DNA of 59,784 nucleotides, taken from contig JAQBRD010000016.1 of the NCBI GenBank assembly GCA_028286665.1, forward strand, positions 1 through 59,784. Reading direction: 5' to 3'. This DNA is from Candidatus Tayloriibacteriota bacterium (GTDB taxonomy: Bacteria > Patescibacteriota > Minisyncoccia > Phycocordibacterales > PALSA-1337). The position numbers were made by a program, and so were the translations under genes. This document shows, in pieces, positions 7,971 to 23,084 of the stretch (its first letter is position 1; each line of letters opens with the position of its first letter). The notes under the pieces are model-generated. The model worked only from the letters and a program-made list of their open reading frames with translations. It ran no database searches and was not told the origin of the DNA.

Positions 7971-8711
7971 CTAAAGCTTGCCGAGGAATACCTTCTCGAG
8001 AATGCCGGTAGCGAGGAGCTGCTTCGGTTCGCCTTGGGCGACGACGCGGCCTTTGTCGAGGACGTATGCGCGATGCGTGATCTCGAGGAGCGATGCGAGA
8101 TTGTGTTCTACCACGACGACTGCTGTTCGGCGCCGTTCGTTGATCTCTTTGATCTTCGCGAAGACTTCCTTCACGATCTTGGGTGCGAGTCCGAGCGATG
8201 GCTCATCGAGCAGCAATACCTTCGGATCGGTCATGAGGCCTCGGGCTATGGCGAGCATCTGCTGCTGTCCGCCGGAGAGGCTGCCTGATTTCGCCTTCAA
8301 TTTCGCTCGCAATGCCGGAAATAATTCGAGCACATTCTCAATGCGCTCTTTGCGCTCTTTCGCGCTACTGATGGCCCATCCGCCGATCTCGAGATTCTCT
8401 GCGACGGTGAGATGGCGGAATACGCGTCGGCCTTGCGGGACGAATGAGATTCCGCGGTGGACGACTTCATGCGAGACCGGCTTGAAAGCTTGAGCTTCCC
8501 AGGCTACCGTGCCTGACTCGATCGGAGCGAGGCCGAAAATAGCCTTGAGGATCGTGGATTTTCCTGCACCGTTCGGTCCCATGAGCGCGACGACTTCCCC
8601 CTCGTCTATCGACACTGAGGCGCCATCAAGAGCCTTCACTCCGCCGTAATGGACGTGGATGTCGGTGAGGGTGAGGAGGGTTTCTTTCTTCATGAGGTAA
8701 TTATACCTCAT
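7971..8711 (-). CDS. livF: branched-chain-amino-acid-type ABC transporter ATP-binding protein (LivF-like)
   Basis: GPNGAGKST, LSGGQQQMLAIARGL, LLLDEPSLGL. An alternative start is ATG 8693 (MKKETLL). Confidence 0.9.
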   Translation of the reverse strand: MRYNYLMKKETLLTLTDIHVHYGGVKALDGASVSIDEGEVVALMGPNGAGKSTILKAIFGLAPIESGTVAWEAQAFKPVSHEVVHRGISFVPQGRRVFRHLTVAENLEIGGWAISSAKERKERIENVLELFPALRAKLKAKSGSLSGGQQQMLAIARGLMTDPKVLLLDEPSLGLAPKIVKEVFAKIKEINERRRTAVVVVEHNLASLLEITHRAYVLDKGRVVAQGEPKQLLATGILEKVFLGKL

Positions 8712-8716
8712 TTGTG

Positions 8717-9868
8717 TTACTTCTCTAGCCGTACGAACTTTCCATCCCGTACTGTCTTCATGAAGAAAGCATAGCTCACGTCCCCATTCTTATCGAATGA
8801 AAGGGGTCCGAAAAGCGACTCGCGGAGTCTGATTGACGATAGGAAGCTTTTCGTGCAGTCAGTAGCTTTTATGTTAGGCATACTATCCTCTTGGATAACA
8901 CTGCCACACTTGGCGTACGCATCTGCGATGAGACGTACTGCTTCATACGCTTCAGCCGCATAGCCATTCGGAAGTTCGTGATACTTTTCTTGGTATGCTT
9001 TTACAAAGCTAGCGTTTATGGAATCTGTAGCGTTAGAATCGTAAGCATTGGTGTATACGAGGTTTTCCGCAAGCTTCGCTGTACCTTCTTTGACTAGAGC
9101 TGGGTCTTCTGCTCCGCGATAGCTCACGAATACTGGCTGTATCTTCAGATTTGCTGCTTCTGCAAGAATGACGCTTGAATGAGACGCAAGTGACGCAAGA
9201 TATATGCTATCTACTCCAGCTTGCTTCATTTTCAAAAGAATCGTATTGAATTCCTTGCTGTCTGCAGGAAAGCCTTCCTCAGCAACTACGCTTATCCCGC
9301 TGCCCTCGGCTGATTTCTTTAGCGCATCACGAAGACTTACTCCGATCTCATTGTTCATATACATGATGCCGAGCTTTTTCTTGCCATGGCTTTTCAAATA
9401 TTCGATTGCAGGAGCCGCTTCCGTGTTCGCTTTGGAAGTGATTCGAAAAGTAAGGTCGTTCGGAGTACTGAATGCCGTCGCAAGTGTCGAAACTGCAATA
9501 TCAAGCACGCCGGCTTTTATTGCGAGAGGCTCTATGGCGACGCTTACATTGCTTGCCATGCTTATCACTGCACTGATGTTCTTTGTCTGGCGGAGCTTGT
9601 TGTATGCATCGATGCCGCCCTTCGGAGTGAAGAGGCTATCCTCATGAAAAAGATTGACCGGCAGATTCGGATGTTCATTCAGTGCTTTTATTTTTCCTAG
9701 CTCAGCACCTTTCATGGTTGATTCTCCAATATACGATGCTTGCCCAGTCAGGGTGCTTATGACGCCGATATTGAGAGCCTGCTTTCCTGCGGATGTATGT
9801 TTGCTTGCCCATACTCCAAGAATGATAAGGATAATGAGAGCAGCAGCGCCTAAGATTTTTTTGTTCAT
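8717..9868 (-). CDS. ABC substrate-binding protein, Leu/Ile/Val-binding-protein family (SBP1), TM anchored
   Basis: MNKKILGAAALIILIILGVWA anchor, then LNIGVISTLTGQASYIGESTMKGAELG, typical of type-I PBPs. The ORF opens at 9943, but ATG 9868 gives a normal N-terminus. AT-richer than livF by eye. Confidence 0.85.
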   Translation of the reverse strand: MNKKILGAAALIILIILGVWASKHTSAGKQALNIGVISTLTGQASYIGESTMKGAELGKIKALNEHPNLPVNLFHEDSLFTPKGGIDAYNKLRQTKNISAVISMASNVSVAIEPLAIKAGVLDIAVSTLATAFSTPNDLTFRITSKANTEAAPAIEYLKSHGKKKLGIMYMNNEIGVSLRDALKKSAEGSGISVVAEEGFPADSKEFNTILLKMKQAGVDSIYLASLASHSSVILAEAANLKIQPVFVSYRGAEDPALVKEGTAKLAENLVYTNAYDSNATDSINASFVKAYQEKYHELPNGYAAEAYEAVRLIADAYAKCGSVIQEDSMPNIKATDCTKSFLSSIRLRESLFGPLSFDKNGDVSYAFFMKTVRDGKFVRLEK

Positions 9869-10024
9869 GATATGTAGTATAACTTGATTTATGAATTTGC
9901 TTATTGTACCCAATGTAAACTTTAAAGCCATTAAAAATGACATAAAAAATATGAATAGGATTAATAGCTTGTAAATAAAGGCTATTTATGTATACTATTG
10001 TTGTCAATAATACTGGCAGTATCA

Positions 10025-10792
10025 ATGAACATAGTACAATCACTTTCAGATATCGGACTTGAGCCGAAACAGGCGGAACTCTATGCGCATCTTCTGAAGC
10101 AGCCAAAAGGGTCTGAACAGACGGTATTTTCTATTGCACAAGGAGTGGGCATGCCCCGCTCCACCACGTATCTCATTCTCGAGGAATTGGAAAATAAGAA
10201 ACTCGTCTCATCTTACAAGAAGAATAATGTGCTCCATTACCTGACGGCTGATCCCGTACGGCTTTCAAGAGATCTTGAGGAAAAAAAGGATCTACTTCAA
10301 TCGATTCTTCCGACGCTCCAGGCACTTTCGAAGGACGCTGCTTTTCGGCCGTCAGTGCAGACATTTACGGGCGCTCGCGGCGTGAAGATTGTCTTTGATG
10401 ATGCCTATAATAATCCACGCAAGCACGGCATCAAGGAATACCACACGATATCTCATCCGAAACTTCTTGAATACATGCCGAGGCAATTTCCTAAGTATAT
10501 GGAAAACAAGCGCCGACTCAATCTCTCGAGTAAGATTCTTGTGCCGAATTTCGTTTCAAGAAAAGGCCCTCCTGAGTATATGAGCGATAGCCACCGCGAG
10601 ACTCGCTATCTTACGCAGGATTTTTCGTTCGAGGGAACGCTTATGATATATGGGCGGAAGACTGCACTCATTTCACATAAGGACGGCGAGGTGTATTCCA
10701 TGATCATTGATTCACAGGCCATTACCGAAATGTTCGATGCGGTATTCAAATGTCTATGGAATCTAATTCCACAGGAAAAGTCCTCTCGTTAG
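10025..10792 (+). CDS. TrmB-family HTH transcriptional regulator-like protein (R1)
   Basis: MNIVQSLSDIGLEPKQAELYAHLLKQPKGSEQTVFSIAQGVGMPRSTTYLILEELENKKLV is a TrmB-type wHTH, with a roughly 170-aa C-domain. Divergent from SBP1. The ORF opens at TTG 9998. Confidence 0.75.
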   Translation: MNIVQSLSDIGLEPKQAELYAHLLKQPKGSEQTVFSIAQGVGMPRSTTYLILEELENKKLVSSYKKNNVLHYLTADPVRLSRDLEEKKDLLQSILPTLQALSKDAAFRPSVQTFTGARGVKIVFDDAYNNPRKHGIKEYHTISHPKLLEYMPRQFPKYMENKRRLNLSSKILVPNFVSRKGPPEYMSDSHRETRYLTQDFSFEGTLMIYGRKTALISHKDGEVYSMIIDSQAITEMFDAVFKCLWNLIPQEKSSR

Positions 10793-10803
10793 AGATTTTT
10801 GAA

Positions 10804-11565
10804 TTATTCCCCCAAATACGCCTCGATTACATCCCTTCGCGAAAGCACCTCGTCCGGCTTTCCTTCAGCGAGCAGCTGTCCTGCGTCGAGGACGTAGAGA
10901 TGATCTGATAGCTCTCGGATGATGTCCATGTTGTGCTCGATGAGGATGACGGCCTTGCCCTGCGTGCGAAGTTCCTTGATGACGCTGATGACCGTCTTTA
11001 CCATTTCAGGGAAAAGCCCCGCGAACGGCTCATCGAAGAAGATGATCTCGATGGCTGCGCCGTCGCTGCCGTGGCACATGGCGAGCACTCGCGCGATCTC
11101 GAGGAGCTTGCGCTGGCCGTATGAGAGGTTCTTCGCCATCTCGTGGCGCTTTTCCCAGAGGCCGACTTTGCGGAGCGTTTCCTCCGCTTTTTCGAGATGA
11201 TATGCGCTGTGCTTCTCGAAGAGCGAACCCCAGACGCCGCGCTTAGTGAGGACGATGAGCAGGTTGTCGAGCACTGGCATCTGCTCGAAGAGGCGCACAT
11301 CCTGGAACGTACGGGTCATGCCGTATGAAGGCACTTCATTCGGTGCGATCTTCGAAATGCGGACGCCACCGTCGCCGATGACGATCTCGCCTCCGTCCAT
11401 TGCATGCATGCCGGTGAGCGTATTCACGAGCGTCGATTTGCCGGAACCGTTCGGTCCGACGATCGAAGTGATCTTGCCCTGTTCGAAAGCGATCGACAAC
11501 TTATTGACCGCGTAGACGCCGTCGAAATGCTTCTCTATTTTGTTCGTCGAGAGCGCAGATTTCAT
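10804..11565 (-). CDS. livG: branched-chain-amino-acid-type ABC transporter ATP-binding protein (LivG-like)
   Basis: GPNGSGKST, LSYGQRKLLEIARVL, IFFDEPFAGL, and a LivG-type C-terminal extension. Confidence 0.9.
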   Translation of the reverse strand: MKSALSTNKIEKHFDGVYAVNKLSIAFEQGKITSIVGPNGSGKSTLVNTLTGMHAMDGGEIVIGDGGVRISKIAPNEVPSYGMTRTFQDVRLFEQMPVLDNLLIVLTKRGVWGSLFEKHSAYHLEKAEETLRKVGLWEKRHEMAKNLSYGQRKLLEIARVLAMCHGSDGAAIEIIFFDEPFAGLFPEMVKTVISVIKELRTQGKAVILIEHNMDIIRELSDHLYVLDAGQLLAEGKPDEVLSRRDVIEAYLGE

Positions 11566-11571
11566 GCCTGA

Positions 11572-12732
11572 TTATTTTACGAGATCGACATAGGTGCCGC
11601 CCTTCACGGTTCGGAACACGAGCGCGCGATTCACTTCGCAATCGCTGTTGAATGTGAGCGAGCCGGTGATTCCTTGGTAGCCCTTGAGCGAGCTGATGTA
11701 GTCACCGACTTTCTTCGGATCATTGCCGACTTTCGAGATTGCTTCTGCGACGATCTTGAGCGAGTCATAGTATCCTGCAGCGAGATAGACCGGCTTCGAG
11801 CCGAATTTGGTTTCATAGGTCTTCTTGAAAGCTTTGGTGACGTCAGAATCGGTCGCGAGCGCATCTCGCGAATAATCATAGTCGACGAAATCCATTCCCT
11901 CGGCGAGCGAGAGGTCCTTGAGCGCAGGATTCTGGGCGAGATAGTAATCGCTCACGAGCGGCTTCTTCCAGCCGAGTTCTTTCACCTGCTTGAGCATCGG
12001 TTCGACGGTGTTCGCGACATTCACGAGGATCATCGCGTCAGCGTTTGCCTGCTGCGCCTTGAGCTTCGTGATATTCGTTCTGAAGTCTCCGTTGCCGGTC
12101 GCATTGTAGAATTCGATCGCGGCGATCTTGCCGCCGGTCGGCTCGAATGCTTTGGTGAATTCAGCAGCGATTCCCTTTCCGTATTCGTTGTCCGGGAGGA
12201 GCATGACGACTGATTTGTAAGCCTTCTTTCCGAGGAGTTCCGTATATCCTGGTCCGAAGCTCTTCGCAGTGAGTGCAATTCGGCATGAGAGCGGCGAACC
12301 GTCGAAATATCCAGGCGTTGTTGCTCCGACTGCGAAGATAAGATTCCCGTCTTTGACAGCAGTCTCTCGGATTGCGCCGACTACCGGGCTTCCGTCAGCG
12401 AGGATGTACTTCACGCCGCGCAATTTGAGCGCATTGTATGCGTCGACAGATTTCTTCGGATCATACGCTGAGTCCTCGAGGACAAGCTCCACCTTCTGTC
12501 CATTGATGCCGCCATTGGCATTGATCTCATCGAGCGCGATCTGCGATGCGTTCTTCTGGAGGTCGCCAATAAGCGCCTGCGGACCCGAGAGGATATATGC
12601 TCCGCCGATCTTGATCGTATCTTTCTTCGAATTGCCCGCGCTTGCGGCTATGACGAGGACTATGGCTACGATAATAACGATGCCGACGATCAGATTCTTC
12701 TTGCTCTTGCTTGACTGGACGGTTGGTTCCAT
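11572..12732 (-). CDS. ABC substrate-binding protein, Leu/Ile/Val-binding-protein family (SBP2), TM anchored
   Basis: N-terminal TM (LIVGIVIIVAIVLVIAA), then IKIGGAYILSGPQALIGDLQKNASQIALDEINANGGINGQKVELVLEDSAYDPKKSV. Confidence 0.88.
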   Translation of the reverse strand: MEPTVQSSKSKKNLIVGIVIIVAIVLVIAASAGNSKKDTIKIGGAYILSGPQALIGDLQKNASQIALDEINANGGINGQKVELVLEDSAYDPKKSVDAYNALKLRGVKYILADGSPVVGAIRETAVKDGNLIFAVGATTPGYFDGSPLSCRIALTAKSFGPGYTELLGKKAYKSVVMLLPDNEYGKGIAAEFTKAFEPTGGKIAAIEFYNATGNGDFRTNITKLKAQQANADAMILVNVANTVEPMLKQVKELGWKKPLVSDYYLAQNPALKDLSLAEGMDFVDYDYSRDALATDSDVTKAFKKTYETKFGSKPVYLAAGYYDSLKIVAEAISKVGNDPKKVGDYISSLKGYQGITGSLTFNSDCEVNRALVFRTVKGGTYVDLVK

Positions 12733-12848: not shown

Positions 12849-14012
12849 CTAGTCTATTTTCATGAATTTCCCGTCTCTAACAGTCTGTATTTCAAAGCCA
12901 TTTTCAGGAGTCCGAATAAAACCTGCCGCATTGAACTCGATTTTGTCGGAAGATGCTCCGCTCAGGGATTTTGTTGCAGCGATCGCGTCACGCAATGCTT
13001 TTCCTCCCCGGAGCTTCGATCGCTCAAGCCCATTCGCGATGACATATGCGGCATCATAGGCCGTTGCAGCTGAAGGATATCTCGGATATTCGCCAAATTC
13101 GGCTCGATACCCTTCTGCGAATCGCGGATATCCCTTAGTCTGCGTTGGCGTACTGAAGTATCGATCTTTCATTAGTTCTGGGCACGTCGTGAGCGAAGTT
13201 GGATCACCTGATGATTCTGTTCCGAGTGTCGGCCCTGCATATCCGAGCTCCTTTGCTTGCTTCAGGAAAGAACACTGATTGTAATCGCTTGTCACGATGA
13301 ATATCGCATCAGGACTATGCTGCATGGTCTTGGAAATTATCGTCCTGAAATCGGTCAGTAGCGGATTTCCCGCATCCTCTTCGCTTACCACAGTTACTCC
13401 GTATGAAGGAGCCTCTTTTTTGAATGCTTCAGCTGTGTATTCCCAGAACCCTGCAGCAAGCGGCTTTATTATTGCTACGCGCTTCAGATTGCTTTTCTGT
13501 GCGAAGCGAAGCAGCTCACGCACGCCGACCCTGTTGTCATGCCAGGTTGAAAAGAAGTATTCATAGTTCTTCACTCTCTCTAGGTCAGGAGTATTATTCG
13601 CACCGACCGTAGGCACTTGTGCAGCCTCGATTATCGGAAGCATTGGCATGGCAGGCTCATCCCATTGGGGACCGATTATCGCAACGACCTTGTCCGCATC
13701 GATGAGCTTTCGGGCTACTGAAACAGCATTTTTGATCTTGTCGAGCGACAAGTCTTCGCTTATCAATCGAATCTTGTGTCCTGAAACGCCCCCGCGAGCA
13801 TTTATCTCTTTGACCGCAAGTTCCGCTCCTCGCTTTTCTTCTTCGCCGATCGATACTCCGACTCCGGTGAGTGCGGAAATGCCGCCGATGCTTATTGTGT
13901 CTGGGCTGTCTGGGATCGCATTCTTTTGCGGTGATCTTTTTGCTGCGATTATTAGTCCAATGCTCGCGAGGATCAATATTGCCAGGAGGACTGCACAAGC
14001 TGATTTTTTCAT
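12849..14012 (-). CDS. ABC substrate-binding protein, Leu/Ile/Val-binding-protein family (SBP3), TM anchored
   Basis: N-terminal TM, then ISIGGISALTGVGVSIGEEEKRGAELAVKEINARGGVSGHKIRLISEDLSLD. Confidence 0.88.
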   Translation of the reverse strand: MKKSACAVLLAILILASIGLIIAAKRSPQKNAIPDSPDTISIGGISALTGVGVSIGEEEKRGAELAVKEINARGGVSGHKIRLISEDLSLDKIKNAVSVARKLIDADKVVAIIGPQWDEPAMPMLPIIEAAQVPTVGANNTPDLERVKNYEYFFSTWHDNRVGVRELLRFAQKSNLKRVAIIKPLAAGFWEYTAEAFKKEAPSYGVTVVSEEDAGNPLLTDFRTIISKTMQHSPDAIFIVTSDYNQCSFLKQAKELGYAGPTLGTESSGDPTSLTTCPELMKDRYFSTPTQTKGYPRFAEGYRAEFGEYPRYPSAATAYDAAYVIANGLERSKLRGGKALRDAIAATKSLSGASSDKIEFNAAGFIRTPENGFEIQTVRDGKFMKID

Positions 14013-14021
14013 AGAAATTTG

Positions 14022-14050
14022 TTGACTAAATCTGATAATGGCACTACTAT
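14022..14050 (+). promoter_or_regulatory. candidate sigma70-type promoter of TrmB-like R2 (TTGACT-17-TACTAT)
   Basis: -35 at 14022-14027 and -10 at 14045-14050, in the divergent SBP3/R2 intergenic region. Confidence 0.4.
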
Positions 14051-14118
14051 AGCCATATCAAATATGTCAGCAAACTCTCCTCAATAGGAGAGCAACTATT
14101 TAGAATTAGAGTACACCG

Positions 14119-14874
14119 ATGAAAACAGACATTCTCAGCAGGTATGGCCTCAATAAGAACGATATCGCCGTATATGACGCGCTGCTTCGCATCGGCAGAT
14201 CGAAGACCGGGCTTATTATCCGTGAGACCAGGATCGTGAGTTCCCGAGTGTACGAATCCCTTCGCATTCTCGTCGGCAGAGGTCTCGTGTCATACCAGGC
14301 TCGAAATAATATCAAATACTATCAGGCCGAATCGCCGGACCAGCTTATCGAAGAGGCATCGAAGGGTGTGAATGATCTGAAGGATCTTGCGAAGGATATC
14401 GCCAACTTCCCTATCGCGATTCCATCCAGAAATGACATCAACATATACGAAGGCCGACATGGCTTCAAGATGGCAACAACCCAGCACGTCGAGCGTCTCA
14501 AGAAGGGCGAAGATCTCTGCATCATCACCTTCTCTCATCGAATTTATACTGGCGGCAAAGGCGCTCGCGAACTCAGGAGCTTCTTCACTGAAACCGATAA
14601 GCCAATGATATCGAAAGACGTCGGCGCTCGGATGATTGCCGATCGCGGCATGCAGAAAACCATGAAGAAAGAGCGCATCGATGCGTCGATATATGACCTG
14701 CGTTATCTTCCTTCGGGATATTTTGGTCCCTGCGCCGTGGATATTTCAAAGACGGAAGTCCTGCTCCTCGTCTGGGGCGATAGCCCGATCGCATTCAGCA
14801 TCAAGAATCCGACCATTGTCGCAAGCTTTCAGAAAAACTTCAATTTCCTATGGGAAATGGCGAAGAAGAAATAG
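14119..14874 (+). CDS. TrmB-family HTH transcriptional regulator-like protein (R2)
   Basis: LSRYGLNKNDIAVYDALLRIGRSKTGLIIRETRIVSSRVYESLRILVGRGLV wHTH plus a C-domain. Divergent from SBP3. Confidence 0.75.
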   Translation: MKTDILSRYGLNKNDIAVYDALLRIGRSKTGLIIRETRIVSSRVYESLRILVGRGLVSYQARNNIKYYQAESPDQLIEEASKGVNDLKDLAKDIANFPIAIPSRNDINIYEGRHGFKMATTQHVERLKKGEDLCIITFSHRIYTGGKGARELRSFFTETDKPMISKDVGARMIADRGMQKTMKKERIDASIYDLRYLPSGYFGPCAVDISKTEVLLLVWGDSPIAFSIKNPTIVASFQKNFNFLWEMAKKK

Positions 14875-14885
14875 CCGCCGAGCCC

Positions 14886-16004
14886 TTATTTCAAAGGAAA
14901 TTCGACAAGCTTTCCGCCGCTGTATCTATAGTAGACAGGGTCCATATCGAAGATCCGATCATCGCCGAAGCCTGCAGACTGAAGGGCGCCTTTATGGGCA
15001 TCCTTCTTCATCTCAGAAACGATGCAGCTTGTATCGTTCTGTGCGCACTTCGACATGCCCCCATAGAGATATATAATCTCATCATAGCCGTATGCAGCCG
15101 GAATGAAGTCCTTTTCGGTTATCGCAGGGTATTTTTTCTGGATATTCGACTTGAATTCGGTTGAGAGCGGCTGATCGAACGTGATGACGCCTTCGAGCGA
15201 CGATGTCGCGACTGATGATCGGACTTTCTCTGTGAAGACGTCCGGAATGCCGAGGCCGGTGAAGACTGGCACATTAAATCTGAGATCGCCCTTCTGCTTG
15301 AAGAAGCTGACCGCATGATCTTCATAGAATACCGGAATAATCGAATCTACGCCTGCCGTTTTCATTTTTGAGATCGTCGTCTTGAAGTCAGTCATGTCCT
15401 CGCCGAACAGATATGGCGTCACCTTGATCCCATGTCGGATCGCCACCGCATCGAGCGCCGTCTGGCATTCCGGAGCAAAATCGAGGTTGATGGAAACAAG
15501 TGCGATGTTCTTTGATCCATGCTCTGCGAGATAATCGCCAGCGATGCCGCACTGCTTCGCCACATCAAAATAGAATTTGAATGCATTCGGATTTTCATTC
15601 ACGAATTTCTTCACGACTGCATCGTAGACGAGCGGGATGCCTGCCTTGAGCGCGATCGGAGAAACCGATGAAGATGGGCCGGCGAATTCGACGGTGAGCG
15701 CATTTACTTTGTCGATATTGATCAGCTTCTGAGCTGCGGTCGCTGATTTCTGCGCATCGGTTCCGCCGTCCTCGATCACAACATCGACATTCCCGCCTTT
15801 TGCCCTGATTTCGTCGACGGCAAGCGCAATTCCTTTGTTGTAACCTTCGCCCCAATACGCTCCCCAGCCGGTGAGCGGCGAGATGACGCCGATCGTGTGC
15901 ATCGTCTTTCTGTGCGGCGTATTGTTCGTCGTCATCAAAAATGCCAAAAGAATGATTACAGCTGCAGCGACTATCGTCCAGGTTATTTTCTTATTCATAT
16001 GCAT
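14886..16004 (-). CDS. ABC substrate-binding protein, Leu/Ile/Val-binding-protein family (SBP4), TM anchored
   Basis: N-terminal TM, then IGVISPLTGWGAYWGEGYNKGIALAVDEIRAKGGNVDVVIEDGGTDAQKS. An alternative start is ATG 15998. Confidence 0.85.
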   Translation of the reverse strand: MHMNKKITWTIVAAAVIILLAFLMTTNNTPHRKTMHTIGVISPLTGWGAYWGEGYNKGIALAVDEIRAKGGNVDVVIEDGGTDAQKSATAAQKLINIDKVNALTVEFAGPSSSVSPIALKAGIPLVYDAVVKKFVNENPNAFKFYFDVAKQCGIAGDYLAEHGSKNIALVSINLDFAPECQTALDAVAIRHGIKVTPYLFGEDMTDFKTTISKMKTAGVDSIIPVFYEDHAVSFFKQKGDLRFNVPVFTGLGIPDVFTEKVRSSVATSSLEGVITFDQPLSTEFKSNIQKKYPAITEKDFIPAAYGYDEIIYLYGGMSKCAQNDTSCIVSEMKKDAHKGALQSAGFGDDRIFDMDPVYYRYSGGKLVEFPLK

Positions 16005-16010
16005 TTAAAT

Positions 16011-16877
16011 TTATAATTTATACTCCCCCACCAACCCCTGCGGCCGATACAGCATGAGCACGATGAGAATGACGCCGTAGGTGACCTGTCGCATCTGCGC
16101 GGCGATGTCCGACGGGAATCCGACGAAGCGGAGGATTTCCGGCAGGAGGATGAGTACCGCTGCGCCGATGACCGCGCCCTTGTTCGATGCAAGGCCGCCG
16201 AGGATGACGATGGCCAGGAGGAAGATCGATTCGGTCAGGGTGAATGTCGACGGGTCGATGAAAGTGATGTAGCTTGCGAACAATGCCCCGGCGACCGATG
16301 CGAGCATCGCGCCGATGACGAAGATGGCGAGCTTGTAGAAGAGCGTGTTGTAGCCGAACACTCGGAGCGCCTCCTCATCTTCGCGGATTCCCTTCAGCAC
16401 GCGGCCGAATGATGAATTCGTCAGATATTCGCAGAAGAAATAGATCGCCACGAGGAATACCGCTGAAAGTACGAGGAACCAGATGTTTTCGCTGAAAGTG
16501 AATCCGAAAAGCGAAGGTCGGCCGATGCCTGGAATGCCGAGCGGGCCTCGCGTGAGCGATTGCCAGTTGAGGAAGATGCTGTAGACGATGATGTTGAAGC
16601 CGAATGAGCCGAGCGCATAATAGTCGTCCTTGAATTTCGAAAGGACGAAGCCGATGCCGAGCGAAATAACCGCAGTGATCGCCATGCCGATGAGCACCGC
16701 GAAGAAGAAATTCATCCCGACTGTCGTTAGCAGGATAGCCGTCGCGTATGCGCCGATTCCATAGAATGCCGCCTGCGTAATCGAGAGCAATCCTGTCACT
16801 CCCACGATCAAATTGAGCGAAAGTCCGAGGATTCCGTAGATGCAGATCAGGATGCCGATGTGGATGAGATATTCCAT
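16011..16877 (-). CDS. livM: branched-chain-amino-acid-type ABC transporter permease (LivM-like)
   Basis: 288-aa polytopic protein. GLLSITQAAFYGIGAYA and REDEEALRVFGYN motifs typical of LivM. Confidence 0.9.
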   Translation of the reverse strand: MEYLIHIGILICIYGILGLSLNLIVGVTGLLSITQAAFYGIGAYATAILLTTVGMNFFFAVLIGMAITAVISLGIGFVLSKFKDDYYALGSFGFNIIVYSIFLNWQSLTRGPLGIPGIGRPSLFGFTFSENIWFLVLSAVFLVAIYFFCEYLTNSSFGRVLKGIREDEEALRVFGYNTLFYKLAIFVIGAMLASVAGALFASYITFIDPSTFTLTESIFLLAIVILGGLASNKGAVIGAAVLILLPEILRFVGFPSDIAAQMRQVTYGVILIVLMLYRPQGLVGEYKL

Positions 16878-16880: not shown

Positions 16881-17747
16881 TTATCTTTTTAATATTCCCT
16901 GCGGCCGGAACAGGAGGAATATTATGAGTACGCCGAAAGCGATCGCATCTTTCCATTCGCCGGAGATCTTCCAGATGCCGAAGTTCTCGACGAAGCCGAG
17001 GAAGAATGCGCCGAGCACGCCGCCATAGATATTGCCGATGCCGCCGATGATCGAGGCGATCACGCCTTTCAAGAGCAGCGAAAGCCCCATAGTCGGCTCG
17101 ATGCCCGTATCGAAACCGACGAGGATGCCGGCGAGTCCTGCGATCGCAGATCCGATGAAGAATACCTTGCCGATGACGACGCGGGTGTTGATGCCGACGA
17201 TCTTCGAGACCTCTTCATCGTCGCCGACCGCTTTCACGGCCTTTCCGAACATCGTGTATTTGAGCGACAGCGCCATGCCGAGCATGAGGACGATGCCGAT
17301 AATGAGCGTGATGAGCTGGACTTGGGTGATGACGCCGCCGAGAATTTCATACACATGATCATTCCCCGCACTCGTCGAGAGCGTCTGGAACTGGCTGGTG
17401 AAAAGGATGGCAATGACGGCTTGGATCGCAGTGAAGGCGCCGAGCGCCGCGACGAGAAGCACCATGCTCGAGGATTTGCGTTCGCGGAGCGGCGCATAGA
17501 TGAAGCGGTACAGGAGCCATCCGAGAAGTCCTGAGACGAGCATGCCGATGACTATCGCGAAGAAGATGTTGAGGCCGAGAGATTTGTAGAAGTAGAAGAC
17601 CGCATATCCGCCGACCGCCGTGAGCGCCCCGTACCCGAGGTCGAAGAATCGGGCTGTTCCGTAGATGAGATTGAAGCCAAGAGCGACCATGGTGTAGATG
17701 GCGCCAGCGATGATGCTGTTGACTATGAGTTGCGGGACAATATCCAT
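16881..17747 (-). CDS. livH: branched-chain-amino-acid-type ABC transporter permease (LivH-like)
   Basis: 288-aa polytopic protein. LVNSIIAGAIYTMVALGFNLIYG and VGDDEEVSKIVGIN motifs typical of LivH. Confidence 0.9.
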   Translation of the reverse strand: MDIVPQLIVNSIIAGAIYTMVALGFNLIYGTARFFDLGYGALTAVGGYAVFYFYKSLGLNIFFAIVIGMLVSGLLGWLLYRFIYAPLRERKSSSMVLLVAALGAFTAIQAVIAILFTSQFQTLSTSAGNDHVYEILGGVITQVQLITLIIGIVLMLGMALSLKYTMFGKAVKAVGDDEEVSKIVGINTRVVIGKVFFIGSAIAGLAGILVGFDTGIEPTMGLSLLLKGVIASIIGGIGNIYGGVLGAFFLGFVENFGIWKISGEWKDAIAFGVLIIFLLFRPQGILKR

Positions 17748-17789
17748 ATAGCTCGCGTTGTGCTCACAGTATAGCCTGTATTCGAGATT

Positions 17790-18563
17790 TTATGCAAAGT
17801 CGCCTTTTTCCTGCTCCACCCTCTTCCAATGATCATCGAAAACATGTTTGAGCATGCTCACAATAGATTGATTTTCGATCATGATGCCGACATTGTCTGC
17901 ATATGAGAAGAAATATGCACGATTGGCTACGAAATAGATGCCGGCCATCTGCGGATCGATATCGAGATGCTTCACGGTTCGACGATATGCGCTTTTTTCA
18001 TCTCGTATATTGAATCCGTCCGGTCCTTTGGCGATGAAAAGACGCGTATCGACTTTATAGGAAGCTCGCTTCTGTATGAAATACTTCAAATAATTTTCCA
18101 AGCCTTTCGCATGCGTGAAATAATTGATGCCGTATCCTCGGAACATCTTGCTTTTGCCGCGCTTATATATATCGAGAATGCTCTCAAGAAGCCGCTCTTG
18201 CCCCATGCTGCCATCATAGAATTCCACTTTCGGGAGTTTGCCCGTCATCGGCCTGATTCTTTCGGAAGTGCTCGCAGCTTCGCCTTGCAGCTCTTTCCTC
18301 AATTTCGCCATTCTCTCCTGCTCATTCTTCAGGTATGCGGAGAGATGAAGCTTGTCGGTATGAAAATGCTTCACGTTCCTTATCGCAGTCTGAACTACCA
18401 GCCCTTTTTCTGCCAAACCGATGAGGATCGAATATGCTGTCTGCCGCGGAATCCCGATCGACGACGCGATATTGGCGGAAGGCATCGGCGGTTTTCCGAC
18501 GAGCGCTACGCAGATCGAAGTTTCAGTTTCGGATAATCCAATTTTCTTGAGAATCTGTTTCAT
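17790..18563 (-). CDS. TrmB-family HTH transcriptional regulator-like protein (R3)
   Basis: MKQILKKIGLSETETSICVALVGKPPMPSANIASSIGIPRQTAYSILIGLAEKGLV wHTH plus a C-domain. The ORF opens at 18638, but that would overlap SBP5, so ATG 18563 is chosen. Confidence 0.75.
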   Translation of the reverse strand: MKQILKKIGLSETETSICVALVGKPPMPSANIASSIGIPRQTAYSILIGLAEKGLVVQTAIRNVKHFHTDKLHLSAYLKNEQERMAKLRKELQGEAASTSERIRPMTGKLPKVEFYDGSMGQERLLESILDIYKRGKSKMFRGYGINYFTHAKGLENYLKYFIQKRASYKVDTRLFIAKGPDGFNIRDEKSAYRRTVKHLDIDPQMAGIYFVANRAYFFSYADNVGIMIENQSIVSMLKHVFDDHWKRVEQEKGDFA

Positions 18564-18571
18564 GTGGAAGG

Positions 18572-18589
18572 TGACGAAAATTTTCGTCA
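18572..18589. promoter_or_regulatory. perfect 18-nt palindrome in the divergent R3/SBP5 intergenic region (candidate operator)
   Basis: TGACGAAAATTTTCGTCA equals its own reverse complement. It starts 9 nt upstream of the R3 start codon. Confidence 0.4.
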
Positions 18590-18620
18590 GACATGCTAAA
18601 AATACATCGGAATAGAGCTT

Positions 18621-19805
18621 TTGGCAAGGGTGTTTCATTCAGGATCGAGCTTGAAACAATTGCTTGCGTATCATGAAGCAGTGAATACAAAAACCAATAA
18701 GATTCTGCTTTGGATTTTCGGAATGGTCGCGATAGCTGCCCTGCTGCTTGCGGTGAGCAAAGGTTTCTCCCATCCGCCGAAGCAGATCCGGCTCGGCTTG
18801 ATGGTTCCCCTCTCTGGAAATAGCGCCTCAGTCGGCGAGCGCATCAGGAATGGCGCGCAAATAGCCGTTGCCGATCTCGAAAGGAATGGCCAGCACATCT
18901 CGCTCATCATAGAAGATGACAAAGGTGACTCTCCCACTGCAGTCAGTGTCGCAAATAAGCTCATCTCGAGCGATCGCGTCCGCATCATTATCGGAACTGC
19001 GAAGTCAGATCCGATGCTCGCGATAGCTCCGATCACCGAAAAGAATAAGATCATCCTCATTTCCCCTACTGCTGGTGCCGATGCAATATCTTCTGCCGGC
19101 GATTATGTCTTCCGGACGATCGAGCTTGCTGACGGACATGGCAAGGCTGCTGCAGAATTCTTCTCTTTGAAAAATATTCGGACTGCCGGAATGTTCGTGG
19201 CAAATGCTTCCAATGCGCAGAGCTATGGGAATGCTTTCGTTCGGCATTTTTCTGAAACTGGCACATTGACCGCGACTTCGACATATAATCCCGCAGACGC
19301 TGATTTCCGAACGATCATATCGAAAATCATCTCGACACATCCGCAGGCAATGTATCTCGGCGTCGCTACGGCGAAAGATGCCGGACTGATCGTGAAGCAG
19401 TCCCGCGAACTCGGCTACGCCGGGCCAATCGTGGCAAGCGTAGCTGCCTTTGCGCCGGAATTTATCACGACAGCAGGAAGCGCAGCCGAAGGCGCTTATG
19501 TGAACGCGCCGTCATTCGATGCTTCGGTCAGCCCTGCATTGGAATTCAATCAGAAGTATCGAACGCGATTCGGCGCCGACAGCGATGGCTTCGCCGCGAA
19601 TTCATACGATGCGATCATGCTTGCGGCTCGGGCTATCCATTCATGCGGTGGCGACAGCAATACTGACTGCATTCGCGACACGCTCTATCAGACAAAGGAC
19701 TACCGAGGCGTAAGCGGCACCATGACGTTCGATCGCAATGGCGATGTCGCGAAGCCTGTGGCTATCAAGAGAGTTGCTGGGGGTAAGTTCGTGGATGCAC
19801 AATAA
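18621..19805 (+). CDS. ABC substrate-binding protein, Leu/Ile/Val-binding-protein family (SBP5), TM anchored
   Basis: TM (ILLWIFGMVAIAALLLAV), then IRLGLMVPLSGNSASVGERIRNGAQIAVADLERNGQHISLIIEDDKGDSPTAV. The start is uncertain: TTG 18621 or GTG 18681. Confidence 0.85.
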   Translation: MARVFHSGSSLKQLLAYHEAVNTKTNKILLWIFGMVAIAALLLAVSKGFSHPPKQIRLGLMVPLSGNSASVGERIRNGAQIAVADLERNGQHISLIIEDDKGDSPTAVSVANKLISSDRVRIIIGTAKSDPMLAIAPITEKNKIILISPTAGADAISSAGDYVFRTIELADGHGKAAAEFFSLKNIRTAGMFVANASNAQSYGNAFVRHFSETGTLTATSTYNPADADFRTIISKIISTHPQAMYLGVATAKDAGLIVKQSRELGYAGPIVASVAAFAPEFITTAGSAAEGAYVNAPSFDASVSPALEFNQKYRTRFGADSDGFAANSYDAIMLAARAIHSCGGDSNTDCIRDTLYQTKDYRGVSGTMTFDRNGDVAKPVAIKRVAGGKFVDAQ

Positions 19806-19829
19806 AACCCGATCTTGCGATCGGGTTTT
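19804..19829. terminator. bidirectional intrinsic terminator between convergent SBP5 and SBP6
   Basis: aaaaCCCGATCttgcGATCGGGtttt. Confidence 0.75.
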
Positions 19830-19852
19830 ATTTCTACGCTTTAATTGAGGTT

Positions 19853-20974
19853 TTATTTCGAAACAACAGCCTTCCCGTCCCTGATGACTGCAACTTCGTA
19901 ATTCGCCGTCTTGAGATCCCCGTTCTCATCGAAGCTGATTTCCTTGGATGAAACCCCGCTTGTATAAACTGTCTTGTAGAGTTCGTTCTTGATAGACGTC
20001 TTGTCTGTTCCGACCGATCCAATCACTTTTGCGATGATCTTCGTGCCGTCATATGCTGTCGCGCTGCAGCCTGCGATCTCATCCGATGCTGTCTTCGCCT
20101 TCATTGCTGTCCTGAATGCATCGGTCGGATTGCTTGTCACTCGACTGTACATCGAACCTTCGGCGACTTTGCCGGCAGAACTCCATATCTTCGGATCGTC
20201 CCAGCCGTCTCCGCCGAACCAGGTCGTCTTCAGGCCAACATCCTTTGCCTGGCTGAGCGCTACTACTGTCTCATTCGAATACCCGAGGAAATAGAGAGCA
20301 TCGACATTCGCAGCCTTTACTTTCGTGAGGATCGTCCTGAGATCGTGAGTATTCTGGTCATATCCGTCATCGACAGCGACTGTGCCGCCGAGCTTCTTGA
20401 ATTCCTGGATGAAAACATCATTGATCCCGATGCCCCAATCAGATTTCACATAGAGTACCGCCACCTTCTTCTTTCCAAGCGTATTGAAAAGATGGTCAGC
20501 TCCGAATTTTCCTTGGAATGAATCAGATGGATAATTTCTGAAAATATAGTCCCCAGCCTTCGTCAGTGTGGGGACTGATGAGCAGTATGAGAGAACCGGA
20601 GTCCTCGACTGTTCTGCGGCCTGTGCAAAAGCCATCGTTTCGCCTGAACAAGCTCCGCCGAGAATTACGGATACTTTGTCGACATTGATGAGCTTATTCG
20701 CCGCACTCGAGGCCGCTGTTCCTCCGCATTTGCCATCCTCATACATAACTTCAAGCTGTCGGCCATTGATTCCCCCGGCAGCATTCACTTCAGCTGTTGC
20801 GATTTCTACTGCCGCCTTCGCATTTTGTCCGATGTTCGCAGCGTCTCCTGAAAGAGGTCCTACGAAGCCGATCCTGATCGGTCCAGTTTCCTTATTCCCC
20901 GACATCGAAACGAATGCGATGACGATGATAATGAGCACGACTATCCCGAGCGCTATTTTCCCGTTCTTGGTCAT
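19853..20974 (-). CDS. ABC substrate-binding protein, Leu/Ile/Val-binding-protein family (SBP6), TM anchored
   Basis: TM, then IRIGFVGPLSGDAANIGQNAKAAVEIATAEVNAAGGINGRQLEVMYEDGKCGGTAA. Confidence 0.88.
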   Translation of the reverse strand: MTKNGKIALGIVVLIIIVIAFVSMSGNKETGPIRIGFVGPLSGDAANIGQNAKAAVEIATAEVNAAGGINGRQLEVMYEDGKCGGTAASSAANKLINVDKVSVILGGACSGETMAFAQAAEQSRTPVLSYCSSVPTLTKAGDYIFRNYPSDSFQGKFGADHLFNTLGKKKVAVLYVKSDWGIGINDVFIQEFKKLGGTVAVDDGYDQNTHDLRTILTKVKAANVDALYFLGYSNETVVALSQAKDVGLKTTWFGGDGWDDPKIWSSAGKVAEGSMYSRVTSNPTDAFRTAMKAKTASDEIAGCSATAYDGTKIIAKVIGSVGTDKTSIKNELYKTVYTSGVSSKEISFDENGDLKTANYEVAVIRDGKAVVSK

Positions 20975-21022
20975 TTGGATTTGCTAATTGATAATTAGCA
21001 ATAGTATGTACCAGACTATGCC

Positions 21023-22111
21023 TTATTGTCCAATAGTGACCGGCTTGCCGTTCCGTATCATTCTGACCACGGCTTTGCTGATGACGAAGCCTTCTGGGTC
21101 GATCGTCAGATCGCCGAGCGCCCCGCTCATGCCTTTGATGTTCAGCAATTCTGATACGATGGCATCTTTGCTTGACTTGCCTGTCTTCGCATACGCAGCC
21201 TCGCTCGCATTCGCAATCATGCCGACGATGTCGTATGCATTGGCTGAGCCGAGGGTTGGCTGCTTGCCATACTTGTTCTGATACAGATCGATGAATGCAT
21301 TCGTCGCATCAGCTGCATTCACATACCAGTTGCCTTCATACAGCTGCGGCTGGTCAGTCTGCTCGAATGATTCGATAGCAGTGATCGGGGTTTTCACGCC
21401 AAGCTCCCTGAGCTGTTTCGTCACGTTCTCGAGTTCGGGACTGAAAGCGAAGAGCACATAGATGTCCGGCTGCTTCTCCTGCGCTTTCAATATCCTTGTC
21501 TTGAAATCGGTTTCTCCGAAGTTGAAATCCTCTTCATCTACGATTGAGATCTCGGTTCCCGCGATCTGCCGCTTCATCTCGTTATTGATCGCGATGATTC
21601 CTGGGATATGGGCGCCGAATATCGCGATCTTGCGGATCTTGCGGCGTCCGAGCTCTTTGATGAACGTTTCTACCTCTGCCTTCGGCGGAGTCCAGTGGAT
21701 GAAATTGTAGTTCCCTTTGGCGATCGTCGGATCTGAGGCTATTGCGAAATGGATTACCTTGTTCTTCTCAGCAATCGGATTGACGATATTCCCAGCGCTT
21801 GAAGCGAGCGTCACTATCGCGTCGACTTTGTCGATAGAAATCAGCTTTTGAGCTGCGCTCGCGGTCCTTTTCGGATCGAAGCCGTCATCCTCGAAAATTA
21901 ATTCGTATTTCAGGCGCGTATCATGAAGCTGAGACTGGGCAAGCATCGCCGCATTCCTAACTCCTTCTCCGAGAAAAGCCACATTGCCGGAGAGCGGTAC
22001 AATGACGCCGATTTTGATTGAGGCTGGCGGTTTATTCGGCATCCGCGCGATCAGTACTGCAATGGCAATGAGGATTATGATGCTCAGGATTATTTTGAGA
22101 TGTTGTTTCAT
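21023..22111 (-). CDS. ABC substrate-binding protein, Leu/Ile/Val-binding-protein family (SBP7), TM anchored
   Basis: MKQHLKIILSIIILIAIAVLIA anchor, then IKIGVIVPLSGNVAFLGEGVRNAAMLAQ. The ORF opens at 22162, and ATG 22111 is chosen. Confidence 0.85.
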   Translation of the reverse strand: MKQHLKIILSIIILIAIAVLIARMPNKPPASIKIGVIVPLSGNVAFLGEGVRNAAMLAQSQLHDTRLKYELIFEDDGFDPKRTASAAQKLISIDKVDAIVTLASSAGNIVNPIAEKNKVIHFAIASDPTIAKGNYNFIHWTPPKAEVETFIKELGRRKIRKIAIFGAHIPGIIAINNEMKRQIAGTEISIVDEEDFNFGETDFKTRILKAQEKQPDIYVLFAFSPELENVTKQLRELGVKTPITAIESFEQTDQPQLYEGNWYVNAADATNAFIDLYQNKYGKQPTLGSANAYDIVGMIANASEAAYAKTGKSSKDAIVSELLNIKGMSGALGDLTIDPEGFVISKAVVRMIRNGKPVTIGQ

Positions 22112-22274
22112 ATTTGTGTGTTTATTCAGTAACGATACCGAGCTCGCCTGTTTTTGTCTCAAATAACATCCAATATATAGCTGAAATATACTTGCAAAAT
22201 AAGGGCAGAAATTAATTCATTGGATTTTGTTCGTGGTTAGTGACAAATAATATATCCTGTGGTATCGTGCAAAT

Positions 22275-23084
22275 ATGAAAAACGAAGCACTCATAAGGAA
22301 TCTTCAGAAGACTGGTCTCAGCGAGAAAACAGCTTTGGTCTATACTGCCCTCCTCGAAATGGGCGGTGCCTACCCGTCAGCGATCTCGGAGAAGACGAAG
22401 ATCAATCGAAGCACCGTATATAAGATCCTCCTCGATCTTTCGATCAAAGGCCTCATTACTGAAATCGAGCGCGGAAAGAAGCTCTATTATCAGGTCGAAA
22501 AACCCGAGAAGCTGGTTCGATATGCGAAAGCTCAGGCGGATACGGCAAAAGACGCATATGAAAAGACCCGCGAGCTCATTCCTGACATCGCCGGCATCTT
22601 CGCCATGAGTCCGAATAAGCCGAAGATCAGATTCTTTCAGAATGCAGATGGCATCATGTCCATCTTCGAGGATCATGTGAGCATCAGCAAGAAGTATGAA
22701 ATGCTTGGCTTCGCCAATACCGCCGAGCTGTCGCGATTCTTCGATCCTGGATTCCTCACGAAATACATCAAGAAGAAGGAGAAGATCGGAATCACCACTC
22801 GCGGCTTCGTTCCGAACACCTCCGGAGACAGGCACTATGCCGAGGAATTCTATAAAGGCGTAAAAGAGTCCATAAAGCTCAAGGTTCGCTACATTCCTCG
22901 AGAAGAATTCCCCTTTAACGGCGAAATTACCATATATGGGACTGATAGGGTTTCAATAATCAACTTCGACGATCGCGGCATTGTCGGCATTATCATAGAA
23001 GACAAGCCGATACATGATATGATGACGCGTATTTTCGAACTTGCGTGGAAAGGCGGAGAGTCAAGCGTTATTAAATCTAAGTAA
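22275..23084 (+). CDS. TrmB-family HTH transcriptional regulator-like protein (R4)
   Basis: LQKTGLSEKTALVYTALLEMGGAYPSAISEKTKINRSTVYKILLDLSIKGLI wHTH plus a C-domain. Divergent from SBP7. Confidence 0.78.
   Translation: MKNEALIRNLQKTGLSEKTALVYTALLEMGGAYPSAISEKTKINRSTVYKILLDLSIKGLITEIERGKKLYYQVEKPEKLVRYAKAQADTAKDAYEKTRELIPDIAGIFAMSPNKPKIRFFQNADGIMSIFEDHVSISKKYEMLGFANTAELSRFFDPGFLTKYIKKKEKIGITTRGFVPNTSGDRHYAEEFYKGVKESIKLKVRYIPREEFPFNGEITIYGTDRVSIINFDDRGIVGIIIEDKPIHDMMTRIFELAWKGGESSVIKSK

Follow-up and report, generated by a model that had tools for sequence, protein, structure and literature searches.

Serving one ATP-binding cassette (ABC) translocator with several receptors is a textbook arrangement, as known from LivJ and LivK with LivHMGF and from HisJ and ArgT with HisQMP2 in E. 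coli. LivJ and LivK are ~80% identical, and E. coli liv expression is under the control of Lrp. In Borrelia burgdorferi, which is host-dependent and has a reduced genome, OppA1-5 work with one OppBCDF and the receptor genes have separate promoters. In the LysR-type layout of local control, regulator and target genes point away from each other, and a single site between them serves the regulator both to repress its own gene and to activate the target. The Candidate Phyla Radiation (CPR; Patescibacteria) makes up a large share of bacterial diversity; its members have few biosynthetic pathways, are mostly uncultured, and their imports and regulation are largely unknown. Many Liv-family substrate-binding proteins (SBPs) have been described in Rhodopseudomonas palustris (PMC3223731), and an over-representation of tripartite tricarboxylate transporter (TTT) SBPs in Rhodoplanes (PMC5994714). 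TrmB of the archaea Thermococcus and Pyrococcus is encoded inside their trehalose/maltose ABC cluster and binds a palindromic operator; members of its family repress or activate, autoregulation was proposed for Tgr, and binding by TrmBL2 extends widely over both coding and intergenic DNA (PMC4158304). The locus under study spans positions 7971-23084 of a 59,784-nt stretch of DNA from a Candidatus Tayloriibacteriota bacterium (contig JAQBRD010000016.1, assembly GCA_028286665.1), which is referred to as the window. It is read here, with moderate confidence, as the amino-acid (HAAT/Liv-type) ABC importer of a Paceibacteria-like member of the Patescibacteria that is built as a multi-receptor system with local TrmBL2-like regulators.

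All genes that the original prediction had listed for this locus were recovered at the same places in the open reading frame (ORF) map, and Pfam confirmed its inventory of a single LivH/LivM permease pair, a single LivG/LivF ATPase pair, seven Peripla_BP_6 genes (SBP1-SBP7) and four PF01978 TrmB-family genes (R1-R4; Table 1). Most of the listed start codons stood, but those of SBP1, SBP7, R3 and SBP5 probably need slight shifts; with the TTG at 18621 listed for it, SBP5 would overlap R3. Two BPD_transp_2 (PF02653) membrane proteins, two ABC_tran proteins, of which the one at 10804-11565 has the LivG-type C-terminal extension BCA_ABC_TP_C, and seven cluster-B (Peripla_BP_6) SBPs with near full-length model coverage make up the set of a HAAT/Liv-type importer (TC 3.A.1.4). 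In these two permeases, the LivG/LivF ATPases and the Peripla_BP_6 receptors, the locus is like E. coli Liv. It differs from it in having seven receptors instead of two, with only 21-30% identity among them, which appear tethered by an N-terminal helix and not free in the periplasm, in an operon order broken by regulator genes, and in local TrmB-family genes as the apparent control.

Seven SBPs stand beside one permease pair and one ATPase pair within 59.8 kb, and hidden Markov models (HMMs) built from the locus proteins found no further copy of these proteins in the window, so that 'single translocator' is a statement on the window. A Logan contig from SRR13312974 bears an identical piece of the locus. 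NCBIfam backs the naming as LivH, LivM, LivG and LivF, but the Urt (urea) models score equally and the equivalog cut-offs are not reached. Liv and Urt could not be separated by NCBIfam for the translocator or for the SBPs, and the translocator may accordingly be of either substrate class.

The seven SBPs are intact genes and not pseudogenes, each with a near full-length Pfam match (E 1e-35 to 1e-54). Each has orthologues in other species with 43-63% identity, compared to 21-30% between the paralogues; thus, the paralogues are old and maintained. The high divergence that had been claimed for them holds, as does the claim of a hydrophobic N-terminal helix without a lipobox (7/7): a basic N-terminus is followed by a strongly hydrophobic helix of ~19 residues (mean Kyte-Doolittle 2.3-3.2), and no lipobox is present in any of the seven N-terminal sequences. 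The same helix without lipobox was found in 322 of 338 related SBPs, and only 4 had a lipobox-like motif. The sequence fits an anchor that stays in place as well as a signal peptide that is removed.

SBP6 matched the Liv-type proteins of Streptococcus, Thermotoga and E. coli in the PDB (4gnr, 3td9 and LivJ/LivK, 1e-30 to 1e-35; LivJ/LivK 1e-30 to 1e-31), and the best PDB match of SBP7 was 3td9 as well. For a comparison of the pockets, the seven SBPs were aligned with a LivJ sequence identical to 1z15_A. Its ligand-contact positions, which we take to be Y18, L77, C78, S79, A100, A101, T102, Y150, Y202, E226 and F276, were compared one by one. Only SBP6 retains the set that anchors the alpha-amino acid in LivJ (C78, S79, S102, Y202 and D226), on this presumed list of positions. 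The other six deviate at most pocket positions, each in a different way and SBP5 most of all. By alignment, SBP6 is the most LivJ-like of the seven, and the pocket differences fit different ligands for each SBP.

R1-R4 score 32-53 bits with PF01978 (gathering score 25.6 bits), which bears out the earlier assignment of all four helix-turn-helix (HTH) proteins to the TrmB family. Likewise, all four genes are divergent from an SBP gene, as the original prediction had stated (4/4). The regulators align end to end over lengths of 250-269 aa and share 19-31% identity. For R4, 406 homologues were found, the best 120 of them with 48-65% identity; where named, they are labelled Patescibacteria, Parcubacteria, Taylorbacteria, Falkowbacteria, Magasanikbacteria and similar. 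Among the top matches, R4 is 45-69% identical across Patescibacteria species, and it is a very widely conserved CPR regulator type. A link of R4 to dnaB was considered and dropped: DnaB adjoins 0 of 80 R4 orthologues, so the adjacency is local to this genome.

The AlphaFold2 (AF2) model of R4, with 26 orthologues in the alignment and a predicted local distance difference test (pLDDT) score of 88.7, has a winged HTH (wHTH), a long dimerising helix (79-110) and an alpha/beta C-terminal domain, which is beta-rich between residues 117 and 268. Its best full-length match by Foldseek against the PDB was TrmBL2 (5bpd, E 5e-13), although with an identity of only 15-17%, and PLD3 matched the C-terminal domain, which is PLD-like. 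A sequence profile search of the PDB covered the N-terminal part only, in TrmB (3qph) and TrmBL2. The wHTH contains the DNA-recognition tyrosine of the TrmB family; this Y49 is invariant in R1-R4 and the 26 R4 orthologues and corresponds to Tyr50 of TrmBL2 (PMC4158304). In length and domain set, the regulators are like TrmBL2 (5bpd, 5bpi, 5bqt, 5box).

TrmB has seven sugar contacts, and six of them (Asn305, Gly320, Met321, Val324, Ile325 and Glu326 in the P. furiosus protein) belong to a second C-terminal subdomain that is absent from TrmBL2, for which no effector is named (PMC4158304). Compared to archaeal TrmB with 338 aa, R1-R4 end at 250-269 aa and miss this subdomain, and PF11495 was without a match in R1-R4 in the Pfam scans; therefore, they lie outside the sugar-sensing subgroup of TrmB, TrmBL1 and Tgr. 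The NCBIfam TrmB and TrmBL1 models cover only residues 1-100. R1-R4 are TrmB-family proteins by their DNA-binding domain and TrmBL2-like by architecture. As with archaeal TrmB, a PF01978 regulator is encoded within an ABC importer cluster, but the host is a bacterium, the importer is of the amino-acid/HAAT type rather than for sugars, and four paralogous regulators share one locus, each with a private predicted operator. The C-terminal domain is strongly conserved in the R4 orthologues (invariant Y141, E142, K168, E217 and Y221), and most of its R4-invariant positions differ among the R1-R4 paralogues. This pattern would fit a specific role of the domain. The ligand sensing that the original prediction ascribed to the regulators, with the imported solute or some other metabolite as signal for the C-terminal domains, is speculative.

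The regulator clades differ in their palindromes, and each clade conserves one of its own. It covers the promoter or transcription start of the regulator gene and lies within the intergenic region shared with the SBP gene. Judged against consensus promoter hits, all four palindromes of the window overlap the -35 box or the transcription start of the regulator's own gene, the classic position for autorepression. When regular expressions for clade palindromes were run over 2.59 Mb of related loci, the matches were almost confined to regulator upstream regions (37 of 39 unique sites, among them 13/13, 18/19, 3/3 and 3/3). Palindromes of further regulator clades are AATTCGGCGAAAAGCGAATA, ATCATCAGAATTGCTGAT, TTGTTG-N8-CAACAA and TGACTAAAAATTAGTCA.

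The R1 palindrome overlaps the predicted R1 transcription start next to a promoter-like site at 9969-9996. It is conserved in the R1 orthologues of loci L082 and L111, and all three of its regular expression sites were upstream of regulator genes. The predicted R2 promoter (14022-14050) precedes the R2 palindrome, for which the clade consensus is AAACTCTCC-N6-GGAGAGTAA. An exact match was found in 8 of 9 listed members of the R2 clade, the copy in L031 having one mismatch, and all 13 unique sites were upstream of regulator genes. It is the only near-exact site (≤2 mismatches) of the window, and a match with 3 mismatches is found at 24318-24339. Between R2 and SBP3, a weak candidate promoter of the minus strand (TTGCTG-16-TATAGT) was read by eye and not as a tool hit; its -10 box overlaps that of R2 and its -35 box abuts the R2 palindrome. 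The R3 palindrome is unique in the window, where 0.02 copies are expected by chance. Upstream of R3 relatives with 40-43% identity, a TGACGA-N6-TCGTCA-like palindrome is retained, which is exact in L163 and has a mismatch in one arm in L162. As to their own surroundings, the R3 relatives (L162 8539-10744; L163 4893-6762; L164 270-2139) have no Liv genes beside them and are divergent from a protein of 335-346 aa without Pfam match, which is followed by an ABC2-type exporter pair in L163.

For R4, alignment of 77 orthologue upstream regions on the start codon gave the consensus ATTTTGTTCGT-N5-TTGACAAAA, which encloses the inverted repeat TTTTGT-N12-ACAAAA. The motif is present in 73 of the 77 promoters with its start fixed ~51 nt before the ATG and has its sole match of the window at R4. 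With a position weight matrix (PWM), ~95% of 102 matches in the 2.59 Mb were at R4-type promoters. In the orthologue promoters, the motif overlaps the -35 box. Only 6-10 nt separate the end of the -10 box from the ATG, so that the mRNAs of R4-type genes should be near-leaderless; the same (near) leaderless appearance was noted at 22240-22277 of the window and upstream of the R4 orthologues of L002-L081. The PWM search for a wider R4 regulon in the 2.59 Mb showed the motif to be almost confined to R4's own promoter. The sole clear extra site of the R4 type lies directly upstream of a livG-type gene (L039 15039-15064 / L126 13014-13039); the two loci apparently are the same contig, JANNXY010000034.1. 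A second, AT-rich palindrome ~75-95 nt upstream of R4 orthologues, noticed by eye for arms that seemed to co-vary and with similar sequence at 9968 and 2789 in the window, was rejected as its arms were no longer than in shuffled sequence.

Taken across clades, the comparative support for binding of R1-R4 to the adjacent intergenic DNA, as predicted from the palindromes, is strong. The centres of the palindromes are 47-154 nt away from the start codon of the partner SBP, and the divergent intergenic regions measure 155 nt in the median and 35 nt at the shortest. In the shortest of them (35-64 nt), the palindrome must overlap the SBP promoter region, and palindrome-based control of the SBP gene is plausible but inferred. 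Head-to-head genes with one short control region that carries the palindrome of the regulator clade form a divergent pair; with a compact control region (~100-160 bp) and a palindrome over the regulator promoter and upstream of the target promoter, these pairs are like the LysR-type layout. The protein family (TrmB wHTH with a PLD-like domain) is unrelated to LysR, and activation of the target would hold here by analogy only. The CPR proteins also differ from TrmBL2, which they match with 15-17% identity only, by their clade-specific palindromes at their own promoters; this restriction argues for specific binding over a coating of DNA of the TrmBL2 type.

Species representatives of GTDB were scanned with an alignment of the R4 family (L002-L081) and with a LivM alignment (L082-L161, the best 80 of 250 relatives); a single-protein query with R4 returned one locus only. 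These 160 relative loci were annotated with HMMs built from the proteins of the window and contained 218 regulators and 378 SBPs after removal of duplicates. The closest livM relatives (best 80 of 250) had 68-86% identity and came from the same groups as the R4 homologues; the permeases are conserved at 64-86%, far above the receptors. Insertions of 370-410 nt in livM of L087, L093, L097, L106 and L144 were discarded as an artefact, as tblastn had joined a weak hit to the LivH paralogue. Among the 35 livM loci with full 10-kb flanks, the number of SBPs ranged from 0 to 13 (median 5) and that of TrmB-like genes from 0 to 6; 24 of these loci had one or more TrmB-like genes, and head-to-head regulator/SBP pairs numbered up to six. 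Interruptions by a regulator-SBP cassette between livG and livF recur in relatives, and sometimes an SBP gene separates livH from livM. Other relatives have the plain order SBP-livH-livM-livG-livF, and gene order varies between genomes. The locus type is a continuum from canonical operons to cassette-interrupted ones and regulator-free arrays.

Unique regulator/SBP adjacencies in the 160 loci were divergent in 130 cases, convergent in 54 and co-directional in 4; the convergent ones are a by-product of tandem cassettes. Co-inheritance was assessed by asking whether the best-matching regulator and the best-matching SBP in another genome with at least two pairs are partners as well. This was the case in 58% of 2850 comparisons versus 32% expected by chance, and in 43% versus 34% when the R4-type pairs were excluded; in both tests, all 200 shuffles of partners within genomes stayed below the observed value. 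The co-diversification of regulators and SBPs that the original prediction had proposed to look for appears, in this best-hit comparison, as co-inheritance of partners. More than 100 species conserve the type of cassette, its orientation and the pairing of its partners; the layout recurs in them and is no random accretion. The strongest module is R4/SBP7, with an SBP7-type partner in 33 of 47 R4-type pairs, and orthologous R2/SBP3 pairs were found in L003, L120, L132, L031 and L023. Partner swapping exists, as for the R1 orthologue in L082. A divergent SBP neighbour is present in 30 of 73 assessable R4 orthologues (~41%), and the others face assorted genes. In many relatives, an R4-type gene directly faces a canonical operon starting with SBP7-livH-livM (L002, L008, L029), which looks like the simple ancestral layout. 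For R3/SBP5, only six relatives of R3 were found, and those examined were not beside SBPs.

The distances between the genes are 5 nt for SBP1-livF, 6 nt for SBP2-livG and 42, 3 and 6 nt along R3-livH-livM-SBP4. SBP1 and livF are probably co-transcribed, and spacing and strand suggest the units SBP1-livF, R1, SBP3-SBP2-livG, R2, R3-livH-livM-SBP4, SBP5, SBP7-SBP6 and R4, the last possibly continuing into dnaB. The hairpin between SBP5 and SBP6 is a likely bidirectional terminator, which was read from the sequence and not listed by the consensus terminator scan. R1 and R2 run against the operon, and in both cases exactly 11 nt separate the regulator gene from the stop codon of its convergent neighbour (10793-10803 before livG, 14875-14885 before SBP4); these two intervals contain no terminator-like hairpin, and convergent transcription may matter there.

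With livF, livG and livHM in three cassette-headed units, as far as the units are read correctly, the translocator is not a constant chassis. The shared translocator of the original prediction would then be no separate unit: livF follows SBP1, livG follows SBP3-SBP2, and livHM-SBP4 follow R3, and the core subunits seem to depend on three different control regions. The split suggests homeostatic autoregulation, coordinated control or read-through. In the proposed model, each regulator would bind its palindrome as a dimer and repress its own gene, and from the same palindrome it would also set the activity of the divergent SBP promoter in LysR-like geometry. The cassettes that interrupt the operon, whose regulator genes run in the opposite direction, would cut the locus into separate units, and the local regulators would set both the choice of receptor and the supply of translocator subunits. 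A wider form of this model is put forward tentatively and is rather doubtful at present: a modular nutrient system throughout the Patescibacteria, in which co-evolving SBP/regulator cassettes are shuffled around a conserved LivHMGF and gate receptor choice and subunit supply according to specific metabolites.

Table 1. Genes and predicted sequence elements of the locus, with positions in the window.
Feature	Position	Strand	Remarks
livF-type ABC ATPase	7971-8711	-	ABC_tran 1e-35; NCBIfam LivF 3e-58, UrtE 1e-67
SBP1	8717-9868 (ORF to 9943)	-	Peripla_BP_6 9e-42; likely start ATG 9868 (MNKKIL...); L111 orthologue 50% identity
R1-type palindrome TGTCA-N7-TGGCA	10002-10018		degenerate copy of clade consensus TGTCAT-N5/6-TGACAGTAATC
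R1	10025-10792 (9998/10025)	+	PF01978 32.3 bits; divergent from SBP1 over 156-nt intergenic region; convergent with livG
livG-type ABC ATPase	10804-11565	-	ABC_tran and BCA_ABC_TP_C; NCBIfam LivG 2e-53
SBP2	11572-12732	-	Peripla_BP_6 5e-48; downstream of SBP3, no own regulator; orthologue 54% identity
SBP3	12849-14012	-	Peripla_BP_6 1e-46; divergent partner of R2
R2-type palindrome AACTCTCC-N6-GGAGAGC	14073-14094		~61-80 nt upstream of SBP3 start codon
R2	14119-14874	+	PF01978 40.7 bits; convergent with SBP4; L003 orthologue 70% identity
SBP4	14886-16004	-	Peripla_BP_6 5e-35; last in R3-livH-livM-SBP4 string
livM-type permease	16011-16877	-	BPD_transp_2 6e-47; NCBIfam LivM 1e-50; 68-86% identity across 80 species
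livH-type permease	16881-17747	-	BPD_transp_2 5e-44; NCBIfam LivH and UrtB ~1e-32 (LivH 3e-32)
R3	17790-18563	-	PF01978 40.9 bits; likely start ATG 18563; 42 nt upstream of livH; divergent from SBP5; few relatives
R3 palindrome TGACGAAAATTTTCGTCA	18572-18589		perfect 9+9; just downstream of predicted R3 promoter (18627-18599)
SBP5	18681-19805	+	Peripla_BP_6 1e-50; start GTG 18681 or ATG 18723
Hairpin AACCCGATC-TTGC-GATCGGGTT	19806-19827		perfect 9 bp, T-runs on both strands; between convergent SBP5 and SBP6
SBP6	19853-20974	-	Peripla_BP_6 2e-54; 48 nt downstream of SBP7
SBP7	21023-22114	-	Peripla_BP_6 3e-46; likely start ATG 22114; conserved divergent partner of R4
R4-type motif ATTTTGTTCGT-N5-(T/G)TGACAAAT	22224-22249	+	overlaps -35 of R4 promoter (22240-22268)
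R4	22275-23084	+	PF01978 53.4 bits; TrmBL2-like architecture; divergent from SBP7

A number of points weigh against a multi-receptor importer with local control. The promoters and transcription units are consensus-based predictions, and separate control of livF, livG and livHM seems awkward for a four-subunit transporter unless it is homeostatic or bridged by read-through. Of the individually regulated receptors that the original prediction had proposed, SBP1, SBP3, SBP5 and SBP7 have a regulator, but SBP2, SBP4 and SBP6 lie behind other genes and have none. R1-R4 end without the sugar-contact subdomain that serves TrmB for its effector. Relatives L100 and L121 (complete chromosome OZ246403.1) have 11-13 SBPs with one permease pair and no TrmB-like gene within 10 kb, so that the regulator appears as an optional add-on; L102 has 13 SBPs and two regulators. 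The metagenome-assembled genome (MAG) SRP133034_co1_10 has two LivM loci, L091 and L137 (CAZBVQ010000001.1 and CAZBVQ010000002.1), and one translocator per genome is thus not universal in the group. The R2 palindrome could also act in the mRNA, as a hairpin (ACUCUCC/GGAGAG) that masks the GGAG Shine-Dalgarno sequence and ribosome-binding site. The palindromes are placed primarily for autoregulation, and the case for control of the SBP promoters is one of proximity; the R4 motif is ~110-150 nt away from the SBP7 start and equally present at R4 orthologues without an SBP neighbour, and R3 relatives adjoin unrelated genes. These last points favour a different explanation, in which the regulators are purely self-regulating or act elsewhere and the adjacency to SBP genes reflects shared history or the co-mobility of a two-gene block. 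It is consistent with the overlap of every palindrome with the regulator's own promoter or transcription start, with the identical R4 motif and 51-nt spacing whether or not an SBP gene lies upstream, with the 59% of R4 orthologues that have other neighbours, and with the unrelated genes paired with R3 relatives. It does not readily account for the extreme orientation bias of 130 divergent versus 4 co-directional pairs, for the co-inheritance of partners, or for the R4-type genes that face a canonical SBP-livH-livM(-livG-livF) operon in many relatives such as L002, L008 and L029. Intergenic regions down to 35-64 nt speak against it as well, since the palindrome centre in clade 1 is ~48 nt from the SBP ATG and must overlap the SBP promoter region. 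Given both sides, this explanation is considered rather unlikely, with a small but real chance of being correct.

Another view concerns the SBPs, some or all of which might not be transport receptors. Some could be tethered surface sensors or bind a host or partner, with Liv serving one or two of them, and this would agree with SBP6 as the only one to retain LivJ-type anchoring residues and with SBP5 in its own transcription unit that ends at the putative terminator. SBPs in signalling are documented in general terms (PMC8050422). Yet all seven SBP genes are embedded between translocator genes, with only 5-6 nt in SBP1-livF and SBP2-livG, relatives keep their SBP arrays tightly interleaved with permease and ATPase genes, and the cluster contains no gene for a chemoreceptor or an SBP-docking kinase, the nearest histidine kinase being encoded at 27935-29626; a sensor role is therefore judged to be quite improbable. 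The close structural match to TrmBL2 raises the question whether R1-R4 are abundant and largely sequence-unspecific chromatin or insulator proteins that lie between transporter genes incidentally. TrmBL2 is the best full-length structural match, the sizes are similar (250-269 versus 264 aa) and the same sugar-binding subdomain is missing (PMC4158304). The clade-specific palindromes persist from species to species and are nearly restricted to the promoter of the cognate regulator, and the paralogues share only 19-31% identity, unlike a single abundant architectural protein, which makes such a role very improbable. Finally, varying gene order, canonical S-P-P-A-A operons (SBP, permeases, ATPases) and regulator-free arrays might point to a chance accretion of duplicated SBPs and unrelated regulators without a conserved design. 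This is already contradicted by the age of the paralogues (orthologues 43-63% versus 21-30% between paralogues), the orientation bias, the co-inheritance and the conserved operators, and it has next to no chance of being right. With a TrmB-family match, an arrangement conserved in relatives and private palindromes in the adjacent DNA, the objections that the original prediction had named against itself find no support, and a multi-receptor importer with local TrmBL2-like regulators is retained as the preferred reading.

The locus lies among ordinary housekeeping genes, between those for an S41 peptidase, CorA and CysS and those for DnaB, RecR and RmuC. The histidine kinase gene mentioned above (minus strand, HisKA and HATPase_c, 563 aa) is ~5 kb away from the cluster and lies within the stretch of lowest GC content of the window (0.45-0.48 at 28-34 kb). 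A leucyl-tRNA synthetase gene (33441-36839, minus strand, 1132 aa) encodes a NUDIX domain (PF00293, 88.7 bits, aa 233-351) between the first segment of the catalytic core and the editing domain, which is an unusual combination. No Rfam family, tRNAs included, reached the gathering score in the window (1-59784).

Multi-receptor ABC importers and local divergent regulators are known themes, of which the locus is a lineage-wide variant. It shares the many diverged SBP genes per translocator with the receptor expansions of Borrelia, R. palustris and Rhodoplanes. To our knowledge, none of these cases has a divergent regulator and a private operator for each receptor gene, and we know of none among them with translocator genes spread among receptor cassettes. 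In a full-text search largely confined to papers free of subscription, none was found that combines TrmB with Patescibacteria, Candidate Phyla Radiation, Parcubacteria, Saccharibacteria and the like, and the CPR genomics papers checked do not mention transporters or regulators of this kind. The combination of CPR-wide TrmBL2-like regulators with private operators, which lie head-to-head with Liv receptors and split the liv operon, is apparently undescribed.

The locus is an unusual case of one ABC translocator with its subunits apparently spread over differently controlled units. Its regulators form a family of small proteins with clearly predicted operators, and they show that an architecture known from the archaeal chromatin protein TrmBL2 is used in bacteria as well, where it apparently serves sequence-specific regulators of local genes. 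With at least seven soluble receptor domains, each genome offers candidates that could be expressed and screened for ligands, which may reveal nutritional dependencies and help cultivation. If the wider model is true, the modular system would rank among the main regulatory circuits of these gene-poor, host-dependent bacteria, and it would directly reflect which substances they draw from their surroundings.

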